From NCBI GenBank assembly GCA_963711565.1, contig CAVQEQ010000003.1, forward strand, positions 160,001-224,000: a stretch of 64,000 bases of DNA, read 5' to 3'. Below, one piece after another: positions 31,505-40,429 of this stretch. This stretch comes from an uncultured delta proteobacterium. GTDB taxonomy: Bacteria; Desulfobacterota; Binatia; Binatales; Binataceae. The translations under genes were made by a program, and so were the position numbers. The first letter of the stretch is position 1, and every line of letters begins with the position of its first letter. The notes under the pieces are model-generated. The model did not search any database and had not been told where the DNA came from. It saw nothing but the letters and a program-made list of their open reading frames with translations.

Positions 31505-32704
31505 TCAGTCGAGACCGATCGCGTCGCGAAGTGCCTTGGTCCAGCCGAGCCAGCGTTGGTCGGGTCCGCTGAAGCCGTCCCACAACATGCTGTTGCACAC
31601 ATAGGCCACTGCGATGCCTGATTCCGGATGCGCGAAGGCCATGCGGCCGCCTGCGCCGCCGTGACCGAAAGATCCTTCGCCCAGCATAGGCTCAATCGCG
31701 CGCGGCAGCTCGAAACCCAGACCGAATCTTTGCGGTCCCGGACCAGCCAGCGGCTTCAGCGAAGCGGGCGCACCAAGCTCCTCGTCCTGCGATTCGCGCG
31801 CGCGCTCGACGGTCTCGGGCGTCAGCAGGCGAATGCCATCGATCTCGCCGACGCAGGCGGCGTACATCTTTGCCAGCGAGCGCGCATTCGCGATGCCGTT
31901 GCCGAAGGGAAGTTGAGCCGCGTGAGCTTCACGCGTGTTGATCAGATTCAAACCGTCGGCGCCCGACGCGATCAAACCTAATGCGGCGCGCACCGGGCGT
32001 GCGTTCAGGTCCATCCCGAGGCTACTGAACAACGCGCGACCCTGCTCCTCAGTCAGCTGCGCCGGAGGAACGATATGCGGCGCGACGCGATGCTCCTGCT
32101 CGGCCGGAAGTCCTATCCAGAAGTCGAGCTTGAGCGGTCCGGCGATTTCTGCGGCGACAAACTCACCGACGGTTTTGCCCGAGACGCGCCGGACGATCTC
32201 ACCGGCCAGATAGCCAAAGGTCAACGCGTGATAGAAGTACGCGGTACCGGGTTTCCACCAAGGCTCCATGTTCGCGAGCGCCATCGTGCAGCGCTTCCAA
32301 TCGAAGAGAGCGGCGCCGGATATTCCATCTTCCTCATCGAAACTCATGAGGCCCGCTCGATGTGCCAGAATGTCGCGGACGGTGATTCCGGCCTTACCCT
32401 TGGCCGCGAACTCCGGCCAATAGCGCGCAACCGGCGCGTCGTAGTCGATCAAACCACGCTGCGCGAGCATGTGCACGCTCACTGCAACGACAGCCTTGGT
32501 GCACGACATCAATATTGTGATCGTGTCTGCGGTGAACGGCCGGCCTTTCACCTTGTCCATTCCCGCCCACACATCGACCACTCTCCGGCCGTGCCGATAC
32601 ACGCATAACTGTGCGCCGCCTTCGTCATTCGCCTGTCCCTCTGCGAATGCGTCGCGCACAGCCTCGAACCCGTGATCCACCGTTCCTTCAGCCCGCATCG
32701 TCAT
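31505..32704 (-). CDS. Serine hydrolase (beta-lactamase/EstB-like esterase)
   Basis: SCTK (SxxK), YHALTFG, FGHGGAGG. Confidence 0.9.
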   Translation of the reverse strand: MTMRAEGTVDHGFEAVRDAFAEGQANDEGGAQLCVYRHGRRVVDVWAGMDKVKGRPFTADTITILMSCTKAVVAVSVHMLAQRGLIDYDAPVARYWPEFAAKGKAGITVRDILAHRAGLMSFDEEDGISGAALFDWKRCTMALANMEPWWKPGTAYFYHALTFGYLAGEIVRRVSGKTVGEFVAAEIAGPLKLDFWIGLPAEQEHRVAPHIVPPAQLTEEQGRALFSSLGMDLNARPVRAALGLIASGADGLNLINTREAHAAQLPFGNGIANARSLAKMYAACVGEIDGIRLLTPETVERARESQDEELGAPASLKPLAGPGPQRFGLGFELPRAIEPMLGEGSFGHGGAGGRMAFAHPESGIAVAYVCNSMLWDGFSGPDQRWLGWTKALRDAIGLD

Positions 32705-32717
32705 ACCTCAAAGTTGA

Positions 32718-34187
32718 TTACCCTCCGCTGCTTCGCAGCGCCGCGAGAAATCTCTCCTTTAATCCATCGAATGGGCCGTTGGACATGAACAGCGCAACGT
32801 CGCCTGTGCGCGCGTCGGCGATCATCTGCTGGAGGATCTCGTCGTTCGACGCGCATGCTATCGCATGAGGGCCGCGTGCGGTGATCGCGCTCGCGAGCGC
32901 ACCGGTTTCCAGACGCTCGGCGGGCGCGATCGGATCGTTGTCCTTGAAATAGACCGGGCCCAGGTAAACACGCGACGCCCTGTCGAAGGCGGCCGCGAAC
33001 GCATCCTGAAATACGTTGCGGCGGGCAGTATTCGAACGCGGCTCGAACGCCGCGAGTATCCGCCGGCCGGGGAAGCGTTCGGCAATCGCCTCGAGCGTGA
33101 CGCCAATCGCCGTCGGATGGTGCGCGAAGTCATCGACCACCGTCACTCCCGCCGCCTCTCCAATCACCTGCTGGCGGCGCACCACGCCCTTGAAGCTGCG
33201 CAGTCCGGCCGCAATCTCGTCGCCGGAGACTCCGAACGCGCTGAGCAGCAAGTAAACACCAAGCGCGTTGGCGACGTTCATTCGGCCGCCGATCGGCAGA
33301 TGGATTGAATCGTGGATTCGGTCGCCATTTCGCGTCACCGAAAATCTCGCACCGTCGGCGCCGACCGTGATTTCCGTCGCGCGATATTCGCCGTCACGCA
33401 GGCCGTAGGTGAGGCGCCGCGAGCGAGCGGCCGCGCTGACTTCGAGCGCATGCGGAAAGTCGGCGCATACCGCGAGTACGCGCGACGAATCCATCTGCTC
33501 GACGAGCGCGCGGAAACTGGATTTCACATGCTCGAGGTCGCGATAGATATCGGCGTGATCGAATTCGACCGCGGTGATGATCGCGCCGCTGGCGCGGTAG
33601 TGCAGAAATTTCGGGCCCTTGTCGAAGAACGCGGTGTCGTACTCGTCGCCCTCGATCACGAAATCGGCGCCGCTGCCGAGCCGGTAATTCGATCCGAAGT
33701 CGCTCGCGACTCCACCCACCAGCATCGAAGGATCGCGCCCAGCGGCCTCGAGCACGTGCCCCATCATCGCAGTCGAAGTAGTTTTGCCATGCGTTCCCGC
33801 GACCATCAGCACGCGCCGGCCGCTGAGAAAAAAATGCCACAGCGCCTCGGGCATCGAGAGATACGGAATCGGCGACGCGAGCAGCGCGATGGCTTCGGGA
33901 TTAGTCGGGACGATCACGTTGCCCACCACCGCCAGGTCGGGCGCAGGCGAAAGATTCGCCGGCGAGAATCCGGTCATCAATCCGACCCGCGAATTTTTAA
34001 GAAGCGATGCCGTCGGCTCGTAGAGCTGATTGTCGGAGCCGGTGACCGATAAGCCGCGCTCGACCAGCATCCCGGCCAGCGCGGCCATCGCGGTGCCGCC
34101 GACTCCGATCAGATGCACGCGCCTGACCGACGCCGGGATTCGCGCGAGGCGTGAAGCGCTGCCGGAATCAGCCACCGTCGAGCGCAT
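32718..34187 (-). CDS. mpl: UDP-MurNAc:tripeptide ligase (MurC/Mpl family)
   Basis: GVGGTAM, GTHGKTT, IEGDEYDTAFFDKGPKF, DDFAHHPTAI, FEPRSNT, MSNG are Mpl-type signatures. Confidence 0.88.
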   Translation of the reverse strand: MRSTVADSGSASRLARIPASVRRVHLIGVGGTAMAALAGMLVERGLSVTGSDNQLYEPTASLLKNSRVGLMTGFSPANLSPAPDLAVVGNVIVPTNPEAIALLASPIPYLSMPEALWHFFLSGRRVLMVAGTHGKTTSTAMMGHVLEAAGRDPSMLVGGVASDFGSNYRLGSGADFVIEGDEYDTAFFDKGPKFLHYRASGAIITAVEFDHADIYRDLEHVKSSFRALVEQMDSSRVLAVCADFPHALEVSAAARSRRLTYGLRDGEYRATEITVGADGARFSVTRNGDRIHDSIHLPIGGRMNVANALGVYLLLSAFGVSGDEIAAGLRSFKGVVRRQQVIGEAAGVTVVDDFAHHPTAIGVTLEAIAERFPGRRILAAFEPRSNTARRNVFQDAFAAAFDRASRVYLGPVYFKDNDPIAPAERLETGALASAITARGPHAIACASNDEILQQMIADARTGDVALFMSNGPFDGLKERFLAALRSSGG

Positions 34188-35298
34188 CCATGATCAGATC
34201 GTGAATCTTCGGGCGGAAGTCGCGAATCTTCTGATTGTCGCGCCGCGGATGAACTCGATTAGTCAGCATCGAGATCGCAATTTCGCTCTCCGGTTCGATC
34301 CAGATCGAAGTGCCGGTGAAGCCAAGATGCCCCACCGCCGCGGGCGAGAAGCGATGACCCGAGCTGGAATGCTCCGCCGACGGCGTGTCCCAGCCGAGCG
34401 CCCAGGTCGAGCCAGGCACGGTCGCATCGCGCGTCCAGAACTCGCGGATTATTTTTCGCGGCACAAAATCCGAGCGCCCCGCGTAGCATGCGATCAGCTC
34501 GCCCGCGATACGATCGACCTCGCGCACCGGGGCGAACAGTCCCGCGTGCCCGGCGACTCCGCCCATCGCGAACGCGTTCTCGTCGTCAACCTCGCCGACC
34601 AGCAGGCGTTTGCGCGACGGACATATTTCGGTCGGCGCGAACATGTCGGGGACCGGCTCCAGGCGCCGCGAGCGGACGTGTGAAATGTCGATATAATCGG
34701 TCGCGCGCAAGGACAGCGGGCGGAAGATTTTCTCGCGGCAGAACCGGTTGAGCGCGACGCTCGCGACCTTTTCGATCGTCTCGCCAAGCAGGATGAAACC
34801 GAGATCAGAGTAGATGGTCTTGCTCGCGGGCGGAGCTTCAGGTTTCTCGCGATGAATCTCCTCGTAGACGAACTCCTTGGCGCCGTAGCTCGCCATGAAG
34901 TTGACCCGCCCGCTTTTTTCGATATCGGCGATCCGCTGGTAAAACGGACGCCACGCCGCCAGGCCCGAGCAATGCGCCAACAGATGGCGAAACGTGATTA
35001 CGGTCTTGCCGTGCACGCCGAAGTTGGGAAAGAAACGCGTCACGCGATCGTCGAGGCGAAACTTGCCGTCGCGCGCGAGGATCATCAGCGCGACCGTCGT
35101 CGCCAGCGCCTTGGTGAGCGACGACAGGTCGTAAACGGTTTCGATTTTGGCCGGGGAGCGACTCGGCTCGATCGACCTGAATCCGAACGCGCCCTCGAAC
35201 GCAACGTCCGCGCCGCGCCGCACAACCACCGTCGCGCCGGGGATTACCCGCTCCTCGACAGCGTCGTTGAAAGCCTGCTCAACCTCACTCCATCCCAA
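34168..35298 (-). CDS. Serine hydrolase (beta-lactamase-related), likely peptidoglycan recycling
   Basis: YDLSSLTK, YSDLGF, GVAGHAGLF, GHLGFTGTS, LTNRVHP. TTG start follows a GGAGGA RBS. Confidence 0.85.
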   Translation of the reverse strand: MGWSEVEQAFNDAVEERVIPGATVVVRRGADVAFEGAFGFRSIEPSRSPAKIETVYDLSSLTKALATTVALMILARDGKFRLDDRVTRFFPNFGVHGKTVITFRHLLAHCSGLAAWRPFYQRIADIEKSGRVNFMASYGAKEFVYEEIHREKPEAPPASKTIYSDLGFILLGETIEKVASVALNRFCREKIFRPLSLRATDYIDISHVRSRRLEPVPDMFAPTEICPSRKRLLVGEVDDENAFAMGGVAGHAGLFAPVREVDRIAGELIACYAGRSDFVPRKIIREFWTRDATVPGSTWALGWDTPSAEHSSSGHRFSPAAVGHLGFTGTSIWIEPESEIAISMLTNRVHPRRDNQKIRDFRPKIHDLIMDALDGG

Positions 35299-35323
35299 CA
35301 GTCCATCCTCCGCAATTGGGCCG

Positions 35324-36250
35324 CTACCGCGTAACGGCCGGCTCAGTGAAAACGATCCGGCGCGCGGCGGAATCGATTCGCGCAACCACGCCGAACGGAA
35401 TCGTAAAATTTTCGGTGCCATGCCCGGCCTCGACGCCCCACAGCACCGGACATCCAAGGCCGTCGGTCTGCTCCGCGGCGAAGCGCGCGATCATCCGGCT
35501 CTCCTGCTCGTTGCCGTCGATCGCGCGAATCGCTCCGAAAACGATTCCCGCGACGCGTGCGAGCGCACCCGATTGGCGCAACTGCACGAGCATTCTGTCG
35601 ATTCGATACGCCTTCTCGCCGGTGTCCTCGAGAAACAAAATTCGTCCGTCGAAACGCGGCGCGTACGGCGTGCCGATCGTCGCGACCAGCACCGACAGGC
35701 ATCCGCCGATAACCTCGCCCTGCGAGTTCCCCGGATGCATCGCCTCGTGCGCCTCCAGCTCGAAGCCGTCAAGCTTGCCGGTGAGCAAACCTTGCAGATG
35801 CTCGAGCGCTCGCGGACTCAGGCCTCGCGCGAAATCCATCGCGACCATCGGCCCGTGAAACGATACCATCCCGGCAAAATCAACCAGCGCGTTGAGGATG
35901 AAGGTCGCATCAGAGAAGCCGACGAAGATTTTGGGCGTGCGTGCGAGCGCCTTGAAGTCGAGGAGCGGCAGCAGTCGGCCACATCCGTAGCCGCCGCGCG
36001 CCGAGAAGATCGCCTTGACCTCGGGGTCGGCGAAATATTCCTGGAGCTCGCTCGCCCGCCCGCGATCGTCGCCGGCCAGGATTCCCGAACGCGCGAGCGC
36101 GCGCTCCGAAACTTTGACCCGATAGCCCATCGAGGCGAGTGCGTTCACGCCGCGCTCGAGATGCGCCCGCTCGATCGCCGCAGCAGGCGCGACGACCGCG
36201 ACGGTATCGCCCGCTTTGAGCGCGTTGGGTTTGATCGGTTTGTTCTTCAC
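35324..36250 (-). CDS. ldcA: LD-carboxypeptidase (S66)
   Basis: ARGGYG, GFSDAT, FHGPM, LFLED, GHG triad motifs. Confidence 0.92.
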   Translation of the reverse strand: MKNKPIKPNALKAGDTVAVVAPAAAIERAHLERGVNALASMGYRVKVSERALARSGILAGDDRGRASELQEYFADPEVKAIFSARGGYGCGRLLPLLDFKALARTPKIFVGFSDATFILNALVDFAGMVSFHGPMVAMDFARGLSPRALEHLQGLLTGKLDGFELEAHEAMHPGNSQGEVIGGCLSVLVATIGTPYAPRFDGRILFLEDTGEKAYRIDRMLVQLRQSGALARVAGIVFGAIRAIDGNEQESRMIARFAAEQTDGLGCPVLWGVEAGHGTENFTIPFGVVARIDSAARRIVFTEPAVTR

Positions 36251-36338: not shown

Positions 36339-37655
36339 TCAGTCGGCGACGGACGGCGCGGCATGCTCCTCCATTCCGGTGAGCGAACCAACTTCGGAAA
36401 ATCCGAGCAGTGCCGCAGTGACCCACAAACCCGCCGCGCCGATTGCAATCGTCGGACGCAGGCCGATGACGCCGCCCGCGATTCCCGCGACGAGTTGCCC
36501 GCAGAGCACGCTGGCTAGGCGGACGAAACGCAGGCTCGCGTTGACCCTGCCCAGCATCGGCTTGGGCGTGATCGTCTGGATCAGGCTGACGGCGTTGATG
36601 AAGTAGACCGTCGCGGCGCTGTCACCGACTAATTGTTGCGCGACCAGCAGCGCCACCGATACCGTGCCGTTGCCCCGCGCGATCGGAAGCAGCATGTACG
36701 CGACGCCTTCGATCGCGAGCCCGGCCACCATCGCCATTCCGGTACCGAGCACATCGGCGGTTCTGCGCGCGGCCAAAGCGCCGAACAGCGAGCTCGCGCC
36801 GCCGACCGCGAAGATCACGCCGAGCACGCCGGGCCTGAAGCCGAGCGCGTTGACGACGAACAGCAAGTAGAGCGTGCCGACCAAACTGTTCGCGAAGCCG
36901 CCCACGATCACGTTGACTCCAAATGCGCGCAGACGGCCGTCGCTGAAGATCAATCGCGCGCCGTCGGCGATCTCACGGGACACACTGGCGTCGCGGGCGC
37001 GCGGTGCGGGGGCAGGTTCAGGCTTGCGGATAAGCGCGATCGCAATGGCTGACGCGAGGAACGAGATCGCATCGATTAGAATTGCGAATGGCGCCGTGAG
37101 CCACTCCACCAGCCAGCCCGACAGCGCGAAGCCGCCCGCTTCGGCGACCCCGGCGCTGGCGGTGAGCTTGCTGTTCGCGTCGAGTAGATCTTCGCGGTCA
37201 ACGAGCGATGGCAGATAGGATCGATAAGCGACGTCAAAGAACAGATCGAGCGCGGAGTACGCGAGCATCACCGTGCAGAGCTGCAGCATGGTGAGTTTCG
37301 CAAACATCGCGGCAACCGGAATCGTGCCCAATACGATGAAGCGGCCGATATCGGTGCCGATCAGAATCGGGCGGCAGCGGACTCGATCGACTATCACGCC
37401 CGCGAAGAGGCCCAGCACCAGCGTCGGCACAATTCCGGCCGCGGCGAGGACGCCCATCTGGAACGGAGTCGCCTTGAGCGCGATCACCGCCGCGAAGCTG
37501 ATCGCGACATCGCCCATCCGCGTGCCGAACAGCGAGACCGTCTCTCCCGTCCACAACTTCATGAAGTCGGCGCGGCTGAATAGCACGCTCCGGCGGCGCG
37601 CGTCGGCGCCGATTGATTCGTTGTCTCTTTCGTCCGAGTGCATCGCAAATCTCAC
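36339..37655 (-). CDS. MFS transporter (MFS_3/DHA3, MefA/EntS-like)
   Basis: About 12 hydrophobic segments; FMKLWTGETVSLFG, GVIVDR, LPSLV..L..ANS, IDAISF, LGRVNA. Start GTG 37655 or ATG 37643. Confidence 0.9.
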   Translation of the reverse strand: MRFAMHSDERDNESIGADARRRSVLFSRADFMKLWTGETVSLFGTRMGDVAISFAAVIALKATPFQMGVLAAAGIVPTLVLGLFAGVIVDRVRCRPILIGTDIGRFIVLGTIPVAAMFAKLTMLQLCTVMLAYSALDLFFDVAYRSYLPSLVDREDLLDANSKLTASAGVAEAGGFALSGWLVEWLTAPFAILIDAISFLASAIAIALIRKPEPAPAPRARDASVSREIADGARLIFSDGRLRAFGVNVIVGGFANSLVGTLYLLFVVNALGFRPGVLGVIFAVGGASSLFGALAARRTADVLGTGMAMVAGLAIEGVAYMLLPIARGNGTVSVALLVAQQLVGDSAATVYFINAVSLIQTITPKPMLGRVNASLRFVRLASVLCGQLVAGIAGGVIGLRPTIAIGAAGLWVTAALLGFSEVGSLTGMEEHAAPSVAD

Positions 37656-37673
37656 GCGCGGCGCACCGCGCAG

Positions 37674-37712
37674 AAAAAGAAAAAGCCCCGGGCTTCGACG
37701 CCCGAGGCTCTT
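37674..37712 (-). terminator. Intrinsic terminator in the 5' leader of the MFS gene
   Basis: Minus strand reads GCCUCGGGC-gucgaa-GCCCGGGGC (9 bp, one G-U pair) followed by UUUUUCUUUUU. Confidence 0.88.
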
Positions 37713-37736
37713 TCAAGCCAGCTTTCGAAGTATCCC

Positions 37737-37784
37737 TCACCCACCAGGTCGTTGTTTGATTGAGATGATGAGGGTGACTTTCAC
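37737..37784 (-). CDS. Putative 15-aa leader peptide MKVTLIISIKQRPGG
   Basis: GGAG RBS (37791-37794) 6 nt before GTG; TGA stop 25-30 nt before the terminator stem. Confidence 0.65.
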   Translation of the reverse strand: MKVTLIISIKQRPGG

Positions 37785-37813
37785 GGGATTCTCCGAGTTC
37801 TGACTAAGGCGCG

Positions 37814-37842
37814 AGACTAATCCCGCCGCGCGAGTGGGTCAA
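37814..37842 (-). promoter_or_regulatory. Sigma70-type promoter for the leader/MFS transcript
   Basis: TTGACC-N17-TAGTCT on the minus strand. Confidence 0.65.
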
Positions 37843-37851
37843 GAAACCGGC

Positions 37852-38835
37852 TCAGTCGAATTTGAGGATTATTTTGCCGAAGTGCTCGCTCGCCTGCATC
37901 ATCCGATGTGCTGTAGGCGCGTCTGCCGCCGGCACCACTTTGTAGATTGGCGGACGCAATTTGCCGGCCTCGAGCGCGACGCCGAATCGCTCGACGAAGC
38001 CCGCGACGATCTGCGCTTTCTCAGTGGCTGGGCGCATTCGCAAAGTCGAGCCGAAGATCTTCAGATGACGGCGCAGGACGGCGGCGAGGTCGAGTTCCGC
38101 GCGCGTTCCATTCATCAGCCCGATCAGCACCAGCCGCCCTCCTTGCGCGAGCGACTCGATATTTCCCGCCAGGTAGGCGCCGCCGATGCTGTCCAGGATC
38201 GCGTCAACGCCGCGCCCGTCCGTCGCGGTCTGCACCGCGGGAGCGAACGGCCCATTCTTGTAATTGATCGCAACGTCGGCGCCCAGCTTGCGGCATTGCT
38301 CGCATTTCTCGTCCGAGCCCGCGGTTACGATCACGCCCACGCCGGCTTCCTTGAGCAACTGAATCGACGCGGTGCCGATACCGCTGCCGCCGCCGTGAAT
38401 CAACGCCGTCTCGCCGCGCTTGATTGCGGCCAGCATGAAAAAATTCAGGAACACGGTCAGGAAGACCTCGGGGACACCGGCGGCTTCCTCGAAACTCAGC
38501 GTCGCTGGAATCTTCATCGCGGACCCGTAATGCGCCACCGCCTTCTCCGCGTAGCCGCCGCCGGGCAGCAGCGCCATCGCGCGGTCGCCGATTTTCCATC
38601 CCGTAACCGCGGCGCCGACCGCGACGACTTCGCCGGCGCATTCCATGCCGATAATTTCCGACGCGCCCGGCGGAGGCGGATAAAATCCCTGGCGTTGAAG
38701 AAGGTCCGCGCGATTCACGCCGGCAGCCCGGACGCGAATCAAGATTTCATCGGGCTTGATCGACGGTTCGGCAACTTCGCCAAGTTTGAGCGCGTTTTCA
38801 TCGCCAGGTTTTTCGACGACTATCGCTTTCATCAT
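37852..38835 (-). CDS. NAD(P)H-quinone oxidoreductase, PIG3/zeta-crystallin family
   Basis: AGVNRADLLQRQGFYPPPPGASE, HGGGSGIG, HFGKI. Confidence 0.92.
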   Translation of the reverse strand: MMKAIVVEKPGDENALKLGEVAEPSIKPDEILIRVRAAGVNRADLLQRQGFYPPPPGASEIIGMECAGEVVAVGAAVTGWKIGDRAMALLPGGGYAEKAVAHYGSAMKIPATLSFEEAAGVPEVFLTVFLNFFMLAAIKRGETALIHGGGSGIGTASIQLLKEAGVGVIVTAGSDEKCEQCRKLGADVAINYKNGPFAPAVQTATDGRGVDAILDSIGGAYLAGNIESLAQGGRLVLIGLMNGTRAELDLAAVLRRHLKIFGSTLRMRPATEKAQIVAGFVERFGVALEAGKLRPPIYKVVPAADAPTAHRMMQASEHFGKIILKFD

Positions 38836-39293
38836 CTGTAAATCATCTTCACGGGTATCTGCTTCCAGCCGCTGCCGTCGTAGTGAAACTTGCACTGGTC
38901 GAAGGTCGGCGCGCTGAATTGTGGCACGACGTTGTTCGAAAATCCGTAGCCCTCGAGCGGGTAGCCGACGAAATTCGATTTGAACTTGCCGCTGCTGTCC
39001 TCGTCATGAAAGAGCGTGATCGCATAGTCGCCGGCGGGGAAGGTTCCATTGAAAACGCATTCGCCGTTGGCGTTCTTAATCGGCGCCCAGACGTGCTTCA
39101 CTATATGAGAATCGTCCCGCGGAAATCCGGCAGGCCCCGACCACAGCGAGCATCCCACCCGCCCGTTGTTATTTCGAAAGCCTGTCACTTCGACCTTGAT
39201 GCCTTTCGACGCGTCTTGTGCCCGCGACGAAGTCGGCAGCACGAACGCCGCCAGCATCAGTGCAAATGCGATCGCCTGGATTTTCACTCTCAT
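38832..39293 (-). CDS. DUF2141 family exported protein
   Basis: Signal peptide; GDYAITLFHDE, GYPLEGYGFSNN, PTF. Confidence 0.85.
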   Translation of the reverse strand: MRVKIQAIAFALMLAAFVLPTSSRAQDASKGIKVEVTGFRNNNGRVGCSLWSGPAGFPRDDSHIVKHVWAPIKNANGECVFNGTFPAGDYAITLFHDEDSSGKFKSNFVGYPLEGYGFSNNVVPQFSAPTFDQCKFHYDGSGWKQIPVKMIYR

Positions 39294-39315
39294 CAAATCG
39301 CAACTCCATAAACGA

Positions 39316-39337
39316 AGAGGGTCCACGAGGACCCTCT
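39316..39337 (-). terminator. Hairpin, probable terminator of the alcohol dehydrogenase gene
   Basis: AGAGGGTCC-acga-GGACCCTCT perfect 9-bp stem with a modest U-rich tail on the minus strand. Confidence 0.5.
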
Positions 39338-39373: not shown

Positions 39374-40429
39374 CTAGTTGTAGTTGTTGATTACCGTGAC
39401 GCCGATATTCTGAAAAGTGTTCATCTCGTTGAAAATCTTGTTGATCCCGTCCAGCCCACAGGTCCCGGTCACCATCGCCTTGGGCGTGACCTTCTTCGCC
39501 TCGACCATTTGCAGCATCGCCGGATAGTGCGATGCCTGCATCCCGAGCGATCCGATCATCTGCAACTCCATCAGGACGATCCGATCGATCGGCATCGGAA
39601 TCTCGCCCTGCTCCGCCGAAGTCGTGAGCCCGATCTGCAGATGACGGCCCTGCTTGCGCAGGCTCATGATCGAATTGCGGCAAGTGGCCGCAACGCCGAG
39701 CGCATCCACGGCCACGTGCGCGCCGCCGCCGGTGAGATCGAAAATCGCGCTCAGGGGATCGGTCTTCTTCGCGTTGATCACGTGCGCCGCGCCCATGCCC
39801 TTGGCGAGTTCGAGCTTGGCCGAGTCGAGATCGACGCCGATGACGTTGGCTCCCATGGCGGCCGCGATATTGATCGCCGACAGTCCGATTCCGCCGCAGC
39901 CATGAACCACCACCCACTCACCGGGCTTCACCTGCGCGCGATCGACGACGCCGTGAAACGAAGTCATAAAGCGGCAGCCCATCGAAGCCGCCTCGACAAA
40001 GTCGATGCTCGCGGGGAGAGTGACGAGGTTCATGTCGGCGAACGGCACTGCGACCAGGTGGCCGAATCCGCCGTGATACGAAAATCCCGGCAGCAGTGGA
40101 GTCAGGCATACGTTGGATTGCCCGTTGCGACAGTATTCGCAAGTGCCGTCGCCCTGGCTGAACGGCACCACGACGCGCGCGCCCTTCTTGAAGTTGCGCA
40201 CGTCCTTGCCGACTTCCTCGACGATGCCGGTGAACTCATGCCCCATGACCGCGCCGGGCTGCGCCGAAAGCCCCATCCACGACCAGTCGCCCGTCCACGC
40301 GTGCCAATCGGAACGGCAGATGCCGTTGGCCTCGACGCGGATGATCGCGCTGGTCGGTTCGCATTCCGGATCGGGAAGAGTTTTTACGACGAGCGGCTTT
40401 TTGGTCGCCTCGAATACAGCTGCTTTCAT
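39374..40429 (-). CDS. Zinc-dependent alcohol dehydrogenase family protein
   Basis: GICRSDWH, GHEFTG, DGTCEYC..C structural zinc site, GCGGIG. Confidence 0.92.
   Translation of the reverse strand: MKAAVFEATKKPLVVKTLPDPECEPTSAIIRVEANGICRSDWHAWTGDWSWMGLSAQPGAVMGHEFTGIVEEVGKDVRNFKKGARVVVPFSQGDGTCEYCRNGQSNVCLTPLLPGFSYHGGFGHLVAVPFADMNLVTLPASIDFVEAASMGCRFMTSFHGVVDRAQVKPGEWVVVHGCGGIGLSAINIAAAMGANVIGVDLDSAKLELAKGMGAAHVINAKKTDPLSAIFDLTGGGAHVAVDALGVAATCRNSIMSLRKQGRHLQIGLTTSAEQGEIPMPIDRIVLMELQMIGSLGMQASHYPAMLQMVEAKKVTPKAMVTGTCGLDGINKIFNEMNTFQNIGVTVINNYN

Follow-up and report, generated by a model that had tools for sequence, protein, structure and literature searches.

This work concerns a short leader on the minus strand of a 64,000-nucleotide (nt) stretch of DNA from an uncultured Candidatus Binatus of the family Binataceae (contig CAVQEQ010000003.1, assembly GCA_963711565.1); the whole stretch is referred to as the window, and all coordinates are given in it unless a contig is named. 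The leader lies between a zinc-dependent oxidoreductase gene and a DHA3-type gene of the major facilitator superfamily (MFS), designated MFS1, and the comparison of its sequence across relatives suggests that it is probably a ribosome-mediated transcription attenuator of that gene. All features listed in an earlier note on this DNA were located between positions 37842 and 37641: a promoter, a Shine-Dalgarno sequence, a leader open reading frame (ORF) of 15 codons and an intrinsic terminator, which together predict a leader transcript of ~135 nt. Of the leader-peptide attenuator proposed in that note for the MFS gene, the core has gained strong comparative support and passes the refutation tests set in the note to the extent that sequence allows, while neither proposed inducing signal is supported. 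The sequence-testable features of this class of regulators appear to be present, with the predicted antiterminator partly supported.

The leader was sought by DNA search in 60 relatives, 36 of them other genomes of the genus. Full-length copies with 74-95% identity were found in 25 of these 36 genomes, and the same MFS gene follows the leader in 26/26 genus copies, the window genome included. All five genus genomes analyzed that lack the leader (94-98% complete) also lack an MFS1 ortholog, the best match being 23-27% identical. A different upstream gene does not separate the leader from the MFS gene: in three genomes (L032-L034) the oxidoreductase is missing or displaced and the leader and MFS gene remain together, and the same linkage was seen in all other genera examined. 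Within its own genome, the element was found by DNA search to be single-copy, apart from a partial look-alike on another contig.

The distribution of sequence identity along the leader was calculated for the 23 orthologs with the same neighbors, L032-L034 being left out. The proposed promoter, TTGACC and TAGTCT separated by a 17-nt spacer, can be read directly on the minus strand, and its support is comparative: TTGAC of the -35 box is identical in 23/23 aligned orthologs (mean pairwise identity of 100%), the spacer has drifted to 59%, and the -10 box stands at 88%. The segment that follows the leader stop codon has a mean identity of 94% and the terminator 96%; in the flanking coding DNA, the corresponding values are 89% (oxidoreductase gene, last 49 nt) and 75% (MFS gene, first 42 nt). 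Such a profile is that of a real promoter followed by an RNA that appears to be constrained more strongly than the adjacent coding DNA. The layout TTGAC-N17-TAnnnT also precedes leaders of other subfamilies, and no promoter-like sites were found between the leader and the MFS start.

A covariance model, R1, was built from the 26 genus copies. It matches 81 of 151 Binataceae genomes in 15 of 30 genera, often with two to five copies per genome. Among 133 genomes of the class outside Binataceae it produced four weak matches (29-33 bits), none of them convincing; the one inspected is an ordinary gene-end terminator. The genomic neighborhood was surveyed for 56 fetched copies, comprising 4 of the 26 genus copies and 52 others. 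In total, 14 of them precede orthologs of MFS1, 32 precede a second type of transporter, MFS2, and 10 precede neither; for 46 of them, an MFS gene in the same orientation starts within ~55 nt, after correction for unaligned N-terminal residues. Six more MFS1 orthologs of Binataceae in a public collection all carry the leader. Among MFS1 homologs from Chloroflexota, Actinomycetota and other lineages (28-47% identity), 0/24 match R1 and at most 1/24 has an upstream terminator. The Rfam search suggested in the earlier note yielded nothing near gathering scores: in Rfam 15, the best match of the window leader reaches 18.6 bits where the gathering score is 61 (E up to 10), and no match was obtained for any of 16 representative subfamily loci.

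The two transporters are efflux-type proteins unrelated to each other. MFS1 of the window matches the Pfam families MFS_1 (1.5e-17) and MFS_3 (2.5e-15) and the NCBIfam model TIGR00900 with 164 bits (cut-off 319.6), and has weak matches to EntS, Tet(V) and Mef. MFS2 matches Tet(40)/TetA(P)-like models and, weakly, NorA. Similarity between MFS1 and MFS2 is undetectable by BLASTP (E = 0.11), and a sequence search of PDB returned no match for MFS1 and weak NorA matches for MFS2. In two divergent species of the genus (L113 in G006 and L120 in G019), MFS2 follows MFS1 by ~30-90 nt with no leader between them, and therefore one leader may serve both pumps.

The window genome itself contains a second leader, on contig 4 at 1163126-1163250 (L002:1426-1550, plus strand), which is preceded by the promoter TTGACT-N17-TATTGT and is located 28 nt 5' of an MFS2-type gene (Tet(40)/TetA(P)-like, with a weak NorA match). 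Its post-stop box and terminator resemble those of the window copy. Its ORF, MKSSGNVRRVPNSTKVLVN, starts ~6 nt past the -10 box, which would place the 5' end of the transcript at the start codon.

A leader ORF of 14-16 codons is intact in 26/26 genus copies, beginning with GTG in 17 and ATG in 9 and ending with TGA in all 26. Its length is exclusively 45, 48 or 51 nt, i.e., insertions and deletions occur in multiples of three, so that the reading frame noticed earlier in the window withstands comparison. The +1 frame is closed by stops in 26/26 copies and the +2 frame in 3/26. A Shine-Dalgarno sequence, GGAG or GGGG, is present in 24/26 genus orthologs, the remaining two having GCGAG (L032) and GCGAA (L033). 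For codons 8-13, which are unpaired in the predicted fold, entropy sums of 2.54, 4.26 and 5.81 were obtained for codon positions 1, 2 and 3, respectively, using the 14 of 26 sequences that have 15 codons; the amino acids encoded there vary freely within the genus, and the third codon position is the most variable.

The same arrangement extends to the wider family, for which 73 copies were compared once five short model hits had been set aside. The position of a conserved box, CU(U/C)CGA, was assigned in each copy by a degenerate-pattern rule, and 70/73 copies have an ORF of 8 codons or more whose end lies 4-15 nt upstream of it, at exactly 6 nt in 51. In the three misses the box had been misplaced by the script, and an ORF is present by eye in all three. 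The ORF of groups B, B2 and C starts 5-8 nt past the -10 box, i.e., at the predicted 5' end of the transcript, and this 5'-terminal start reads ATG in the copies tabulated, whereas the groups led by a Shine-Dalgarno sequence mix GTG and ATG. An ATG at the 5' terminus is consistent with translation from a 5'-terminal start codon. The encoded peptides are unrelated between subfamilies (MKVTLII.., MRELIPHNQTASG, MQATLPHNRNPQV, MKAYPITSTSSP, MPAIKPHID, MKPSGDVRRVPNSMRVLLN and MPDFVAAITGPNREFP). We favor the view that the ORF is read, because the maintenance of its start codon, its frame and the place of its stop is hard to explain otherwise.

The 156-nt leader folds at -69.1 kcal/mol compared to -49.5 +/- 4.0 kcal/mol for shuffled sequences (z = -4.87; 0/200 shuffles as good). 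The minimum free energy (MFE) fold consists of a terminator and a long hairpin, P1, with four helical segments. In P1a (AGUCAG:CUGGCU), the 5' part of the leader pairs with the region just past the ORF; P1b (UCGGAG:CUUCGA) buries the leader Shine-Dalgarno sequence; P1c (AUCCC:GGGAU) is abutted by the start codon at its 5' strand and by the stop codon at its 3' strand; and P1d (UCACCC:GGGUGA) contains the stop codon. The leader ORF is the exact interior of the helix closed by P1c. The apical part of P1 varies in sequence and length among copies, and the element is a single long hairpin with neither a multi-helix junction nor a conserved apical core of the kind found in aptamers. The pairing of CCCUCAUC with GGUGAGGG that had been described as a protector is plausible, being a register variant of the P1 hairpin.

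Covariation analysis within the genus was set aside because the sequences are too conserved to be informative. It was performed on a family alignment (A4) of 42 of the 73 copies, which were hand-picked; this alignment underlies the covariation and antiterminator statistics that follow. In P1a-c and the terminator, 23/32 pairs are changed on both sides, compared to 14.9 +/- 1.7 in shuffled alignments (0/500 reach this value), and 81.2% of cells are paired, compared to 74.2% for shuffles and at most 57% for slid controls. The covariation score is 0.255, versus 0.160 for shuffles and at most 0.153 for slid controls. Thus, the basal hairpin and the terminator covary across relatives. The terminator itself has 15 pairs, 9 of them G-C, of which 10/15 are changed on both sides across the family; with its 6-nt loop, a U tail to ~37673 and a predicted energy of -29.0 kcal/mol, it is the strong intrinsic terminator reported before, ending 30 nt 5' of the MFS ATG.

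A leader that controls termination should be able to adopt an alternative to the terminator. The antiterminator proposed in the earlier note (UGAGG..CUUCGA with UUGAAAG..CCUCG) ranked outside the best suboptimal folds. Isolated folding of the region between the stop codon and the terminator loop, both included, predicts a nested structure of -15.7 to -16.0 kcal/mol, composed of CUUCGA:UCGAAG, a 3-bp middle helix, and GGCUU:GAGCC, the latter at the base of the terminator 5' arm; this predicted antiterminator occupies nearly the whole 5' arm. It is the MFE fold in 25/42 representatives, i.e., in 18/18 of those linked to MFS1, 7/18 of those linked to MFS2, and 0/6 orphan copies that have no MFS gene (described below). 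The pairs of the inner hairpin, columns 98-100 with 111-113, have mean probabilities of 0.62-0.70. In the family at large, the pair at position 3 of the box and position 4 of the loop is mostly U-A; it is U-G in L027 and L031 and C-G in 11 group C and B2 copies, with a C/A mismatch in one copy. We regard this predicted antiterminator as plausible and partly supported.

The influence of a ribosome on this choice was modeled by folding the transcript cut just before the terminator 3' arm, with the positions from -12 to +14 nt around the P site blocked. With no ribosome, P1b has a probability of 0.99 and the box:loop helix 0.00. Placing the P site at codons 1-4 abolishes P1b and raises the box:loop helix to 0.81-0.98; at codons 13-14 the latter is ~0.46, and a ribosome at the stop codon masks the box, which returns the value to 0.00. 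These predictions are compatible with the following mechanism. Without a ribosome, P1 would form, its 3' strand (GGGAU-A-CUUCGA...CUGGCU) pairing with the Shine-Dalgarno region and the 5' end; with P1 formed, the terminator would form and transcription would stop after ~135 nt, leaving the MFS gene off by default. A ribosome loaded during transcription and stalled in the ORF would occupy the 5' strand of P1 and free CUUCGA and GGCUU. The former could then pair with the terminator loop UCGAAG and the latter with GAGCC, and the nested antiterminator would permit read-through into the MFS gene. If translation continued to the stop codon, which lies 6 nt 5' of the box, the ribosome would mask the box and the terminator would be restored. 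Since P1b buries the leader Shine-Dalgarno sequence, ribosomes could load only during RNA synthesis, which suits a transcriptional switch. Taken as geometry alone, the ORF, with P1c at its flanks and the 6-nt distance from stop to box in 51/73 copies, suits the selection of a fold by ribosome position. The coordinates of these features and of the neighboring genes are listed below.

Positions of the leader features and adjacent genes in the window, in the direction of transcription
Feature	Position	Strand	Basis or remarks
Zinc-dependent oxidoreductase (qor-like dehydrogenase gene, qor)	stop at 37852	-	Pfam ADH_zinc_N + ADH_N
-35 box TTGACC	37837..37842	-	sequence and comparison
-10 box TAGTCT, weak consensus match	37814..37819	-	sequence and comparison
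P1 hairpin	37716..37805	-	MFE fold, pair list, covariation
Shine-Dalgarno sequence GGAG, 6 nt 5' of leader start codon	37791..37794	-	sequence
Leader ORF GTG..TGA, 15 codons, MKVTLIISIKQRPGG	37737..37784; TGA 37739-37737	-	sequence and orthologs
Post-stop segment GGGAUA-CUUCGA-AAG-CUGGCUU	between leader ORF and terminator	-	sequence
Anti-Shine-Dalgarno box CUUCGA, 6 nt 3' of stop; 3' strand of P1b and 5' strand of predicted antiterminator	37725..37730	-	
Inner antiterminator hairpin GGCUU-GAAA-GAGCC, takes base of terminator 5' arm	37706..37719	-	predicted
Intrinsic terminator, 15-bp stem, loop GUCGAA, U tail	37673..37714 (stem-loop 37714-37679)	-	terminator prediction
UCGAAG, terminator loop and first base of 3' arm; predicted partner of the box in antiterminator	37693..37698	-	
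Small hairpin GCGCGG-UGCG-CCGCGC between terminator and MFS ribosome-binding site	37656..37671	-	
GUGAGA, likely Shine-Dalgarno sequence of MFS gene	37650..37655	-	6 nt before ATG; putative ribosome-binding role
MFS transporter gene (MFS1), 434 aa, DHA3-like	36339..37643	-	Pfam, NCBIfam
LdcA-like muramoyltetrapeptide carboxypeptidase	35324-36250	-	
PBP4B/AmpH-like serine hydrolase	34168-35457	-	
Mpl-like murein peptide ligase	32718-34187	-	
LipL-like esterase/beta-lactamase	31505-32704	-	

Several results weigh against attenuation by a translating ribosome. The antiterminator pairs are not distinguished from shuffles (79.9% vs 79.2% paired, with 108/500 shuffles as high) and never covary within the genus. 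The box:loop helix is missing in group B (0/6), to which the genome's own second copy belongs, and in group F, and group A8 forms it in a shifted register. In the full transcript at equilibrium, the terminator has a probability of 1.00 under all 16 imposed ribosome footprints. The terminator always wins at equilibrium, and therefore the switch has to be kinetic, as is the decision in the classical trp attenuator; equilibrium folding of the full leader was accordingly rejected as a test of switching, on which it is uninformative. With the P site at codons 5-12, P1b re-forms in the simple footprint model, and read-through for stalls at these codons draws on a steric argument only, namely that a bound ribosome would hinder a helix from closing around it. 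The conservation of codons 1-7 is indistinguishable from conservation of the RNA helix that they form. Finally, a consensus promoter scan called no site at the leader promoter, because TAGTCT matches TATAAT at just 3/6 positions.

The last point on this side comes from the ten orphan copies, all of which belong to one genus, g44 (L065, L067, L069-L073, L076, L077 and L079), and encode the peptide MLVTGKITPPLIR or closely similar ones. Promoter, P1 and terminator are all retained, but no MFS gene is present within 1.5 kb. According to the ORF tables, they are located upstream of queA, at a distance of 85 nt to roughly 0.8 kb. The names queA and tgt, for queuosine tRNA-modification genes, are our presumption from N-terminal motifs. 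In four other genera (L114, L116, L117 and L118 of g39, g37, g43 and g51), MFS1, and in one of them MFS2 too, is directly followed by queA and tgt. Since the order leader-MFS1-(MFS2)-queA-tgt occurs elsewhere, the orphans look like survivors of an MFS1 loss, apparently the result of deletion of the MFS gene. In L067, L071, L072 and L073, a small gene beginning MKTSAVTVRLDADLKP is found between the orphan leader and queA; we take its product to be ribbon-helix-helix-like on account of its motif. Loop complementarity is present in 0/10 orphans by the box-partner table and 0/6 by MFE, and 3/10 carry 1-nt deletions that shift the frame and shorten the ORF. The orphans are nonetheless conserved without an MFS gene, promoter included, and therefore the RNA can persist without the job proposed for it. 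They are either decaying remnants or terminated RNAs with a role of their own.

The second of these possibilities leads to the best-surviving rival explanation, in which the ~135-nt transcript is an independent small RNA (sRNA) or micropeptide gene that acts in trans, e.g., via the CUUCGA box, the MFS gene being expressed by leakage. An own promoter, a very strong terminator, several leader copies per genome and the persistence of promoter, P1 and terminator in the ten orphans of g44 would all suit such a gene. Position independent of a downstream gene on the same strand was found in these 10 orphans; it was seen neither in the window copy nor in 46/56 fetched copies. The latter and 26/26 genus copies end close to an MFS start in the same orientation with no promoter between, and the leader and MFS1 are present or absent together. 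Moreover, the orphans have lost precisely the loop complementarity that is kept in MFS-linked copies and 3/10 are frame-shifted, which fits relaxed constraint, and a micropeptide is unlikely because the peptide is not conserved between subfamilies. We therefore consider an sRNA or micropeptide as the sole function of the locus unlikely. This function can coexist with attenuation, as reported for the attenuator RNA rnTrpL (PMC6614838) and its leader peptide peTrpL (PMC7968998), which provide the precedent for an sRNA. A combined scheme, in which the family would be a translation-stress sensor invented in this lineage that gates two unrelated pumps in cis, by ORFs either led by a Shine-Dalgarno sequence or located at the transcript 5' end, and also acts in trans through the box of the 135-nt RNA, with the orphans acting in trans only, is likewise doubtful.

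In another explanation, the leader would be an attenuator whose sensor is not the ribosome: a ligand, a protein or an RNA would bind the post-stop segment GGGAUACUUCGAAAGCUGGCUU, and the ORF would be secondary. The post-stop segment and terminator are indeed the most conserved parts of the element (94-96%), above the flanking coding DNA, and the box and its flanks are conserved across subfamilies with unrelated peptides; the palindrome UUCGAA could be a protein-binding site. However, conservation of the box is already explained by its alternate pairing with the Shine-Dalgarno region and the terminator loop, nothing in Rfam 15 matches, and the start, frame and stop of the ORF are maintained, with 5'-terminal ORFs beginning with ATG. 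No multi-helix junction or conserved apical core is present in P1, the apex of which varies, and a metabolite riboswitch was rejected on the same ground, as a single long hairpin with a variable apex offers no aptamer core. Taken together, this makes a non-ribosomal sensor distinctly improbable. That the hairpin merely terminates transcription of the oxidoreductase gene, with ORF and promoter arising by chance, would fit a terminator ~140 nt past the oxidoreductase stop on the same strand, but this refuting possibility raised in the earlier note is contradicted by the element remaining with the MFS gene where the upstream gene changes (L032-L034 and other genera), by promoter boxes conserved while the spacer drifts, by the ORF intact in 26/26 copies and by covariation in P1, and we regard it as almost certainly wrong.

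If the leader is an attenuator of the MFS gene read by ribosomes, the nature of its signal has to be considered. Two signals had been suggested for the window peptide. The K-Q-R sequence, taken as a +x+ macrolide arrest motif, occurs in the window copy alone (1/25 distinct genus peptides), and a +x+ macrolide leader was rejected because the motif is not conserved. The V-T-L-I-I run, taken as a sign of branched-chain amino acid or Thr starvation, is confined to the genus and coincides with RNA pairing; leaders before orthologous MFS genes elsewhere replace the Ile run with unrelated peptides (MRELIPHNQTASG, MKAYPITSTSSP, MPAIKPHID). Subfamilies that control orthologous genes have no repeated amino acid consistently in common. 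An attenuator of the amino-acid type (ilv/leu/thr) was rejected, since there is no conserved codon run and the downstream gene encodes an MFS transporter rather than a biosynthetic operon, and sensing of any single amino acid is disfavored because the peptide is not conserved between subfamilies.

Sensing of queuosine tRNA was considered because of the gene order leader-MFS1-(MFS2)-queA-tgt in four genera, and was rejected: Asn, His, Asp and Tyr together are not enriched in the leader peptides (22.5/143 effective residues vs 13.8% background, p = 0.31). Asn and His alone are enriched (17.7/143 vs 5.7%), with a p value of 0.003 that is post hoc, uncorrected and obtained from related groups; Pro also stands out (p = 0.014). 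U-ending codons are not rare in the genome (0.33-0.49), and the window peptide has no Asn, His, Asp or Tyr codon, nor Pro. The signal may be any cause of slowed elongation on the leader, with ribosome-targeting natural products that the pump would export as the most plausible candidates. This guess of a translation-slowing inducer is based on the resemblance of both MFS proteins to drug/proton antiporters and on the response of known similar leaders to ribosome-targeting antibiotics. The neighboring genes give no consistent hint of a substrate, being LdcA/PBP4B/Mpl-like in the genus and queA-tgt elsewhere.

The proposed device can be placed among known attenuators by its likeness to several of them. 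In the classical amino-acid attenuators of Enterobacteria (trp, his, leu, ilvGMEDA, thr), segments pair 1-2, 2-3 and 3-4, segment 1 lies partly within the leader ORF, and segment 2 is blocked once the ribosome has reached the stop codon; the logic proposed here is the same. Unlike them, the Binataceae leader has no family-wide tandem regulatory codons and precedes a transporter gene instead of a biosynthetic operon; its Shine-Dalgarno sequence is part of segment 1, and in some subfamilies the ORF is located at the 5' end of the transcript.

A further parallel is the mef(E)/mel (msr(D)) leader of Streptococcus pneumoniae, which comprises 327 nt with four inverted-repeat pairs, the peptide MTASMRLR and a Rho-independent terminator (Chancey et al. 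2015, PMC4335068). Both leaders have an own promoter, a short peptide, a terminator, a predicted anti-attenuator and a DHA3-type MFS gene downstream; they differ in that the pneumococcal one encodes an 8-residue peptide with a macrolide arrest motif in 327 nt, whereas the Binataceae leader has ~135 nt, one hairpin and 14-16 codons. There is no sequence similarity between the two. For bmrB-bmrCD of Bacillus subtilis, translation of the leader ORF is needed, alternative stem-loops include a terminator, and antibiotics against protein synthesis induce the transporter (Reilman et al. 2014, PMC4191407). For the Binataceae leader, too, we favor a sensor that responds broadly to translation stress. 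The bmrB leader differs in that its terminator is inside the bmrB coding region, the pump is of the ABC type and AbrB exerts control; the Binataceae ORF, known from sequence alone, stops 6 nt before the box and ~22 nt before the terminator. In Sinorhizobium meliloti, rnTrpL and peTrpL are reported to be an attenuator RNA and a leader peptide with functions of their own (PMC6614838, PMC7968998), and they serve as a model for the orphan copies beside queA, with the difference that the Binataceae peptide is not conserved between subfamilies. In a non-exhaustive search of the literature, RNA regulation is the subject of none of the 25 titles listed from 87 papers that name Binatota, Binatia, Binataceae or Candidatus Binatus, and none of 15 papers listed in another search contains such a name. 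Of interest here are the restriction to one lineage, the placement before two unrelated pump genes, the two modes of ORF start on one scaffold, and the orphans.

Some further features of the locus deserve mention. The small hairpin between the terminator and the MFS ribosome-binding site has 96% of cells paired in the genus, one G-C pair being replaced by A-U in 3 sequences. The MFS start is the ATG at 37643, which is kept in 26/26 orthologs; the alternative listed GTG start at 37655 falls inside the Shine-Dalgarno-like GUGAGA. Among the sequencing runs listed as containing this DNA, none is on record as RNA. Downstream of MFS1, four genes on the same strand (31505-36250), all scoring below curated cut-offs, resemble a cluster for peptidoglycan recycling. 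The arrangement MFS1, S66 peptidase, hydrolase, Mpl was found in 4/4 other genus genomes examined, and a version of it containing MFS2 in two more. The oxidoreductase gene is preceded by a DUF2141 protein (38832-39326, minus strand) and a second zinc-dependent dehydrogenase (39374-40429, minus strand), which are unrelated to the leader.

With this element, which is absent from Rfam, a regulatory RNA family would be described for the first time in Binataceae, an abundant uncultured lineage of soil. For annotation, it draws attention to short ORFs and premature terminators that are currently unmarked in all these genomes. The two MFS pumps would be marked by it as inducible, probably by translation stress, which would give a lead on defense in soil, and a compact reporter for ribosome-stalling compounds could be built from the leader. 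With Shine-Dalgarno-led ORFs, ORFs at the 5' end and gene-less orphans on one scaffold, the family would offer a natural series on the evolution of attenuators into small RNAs.

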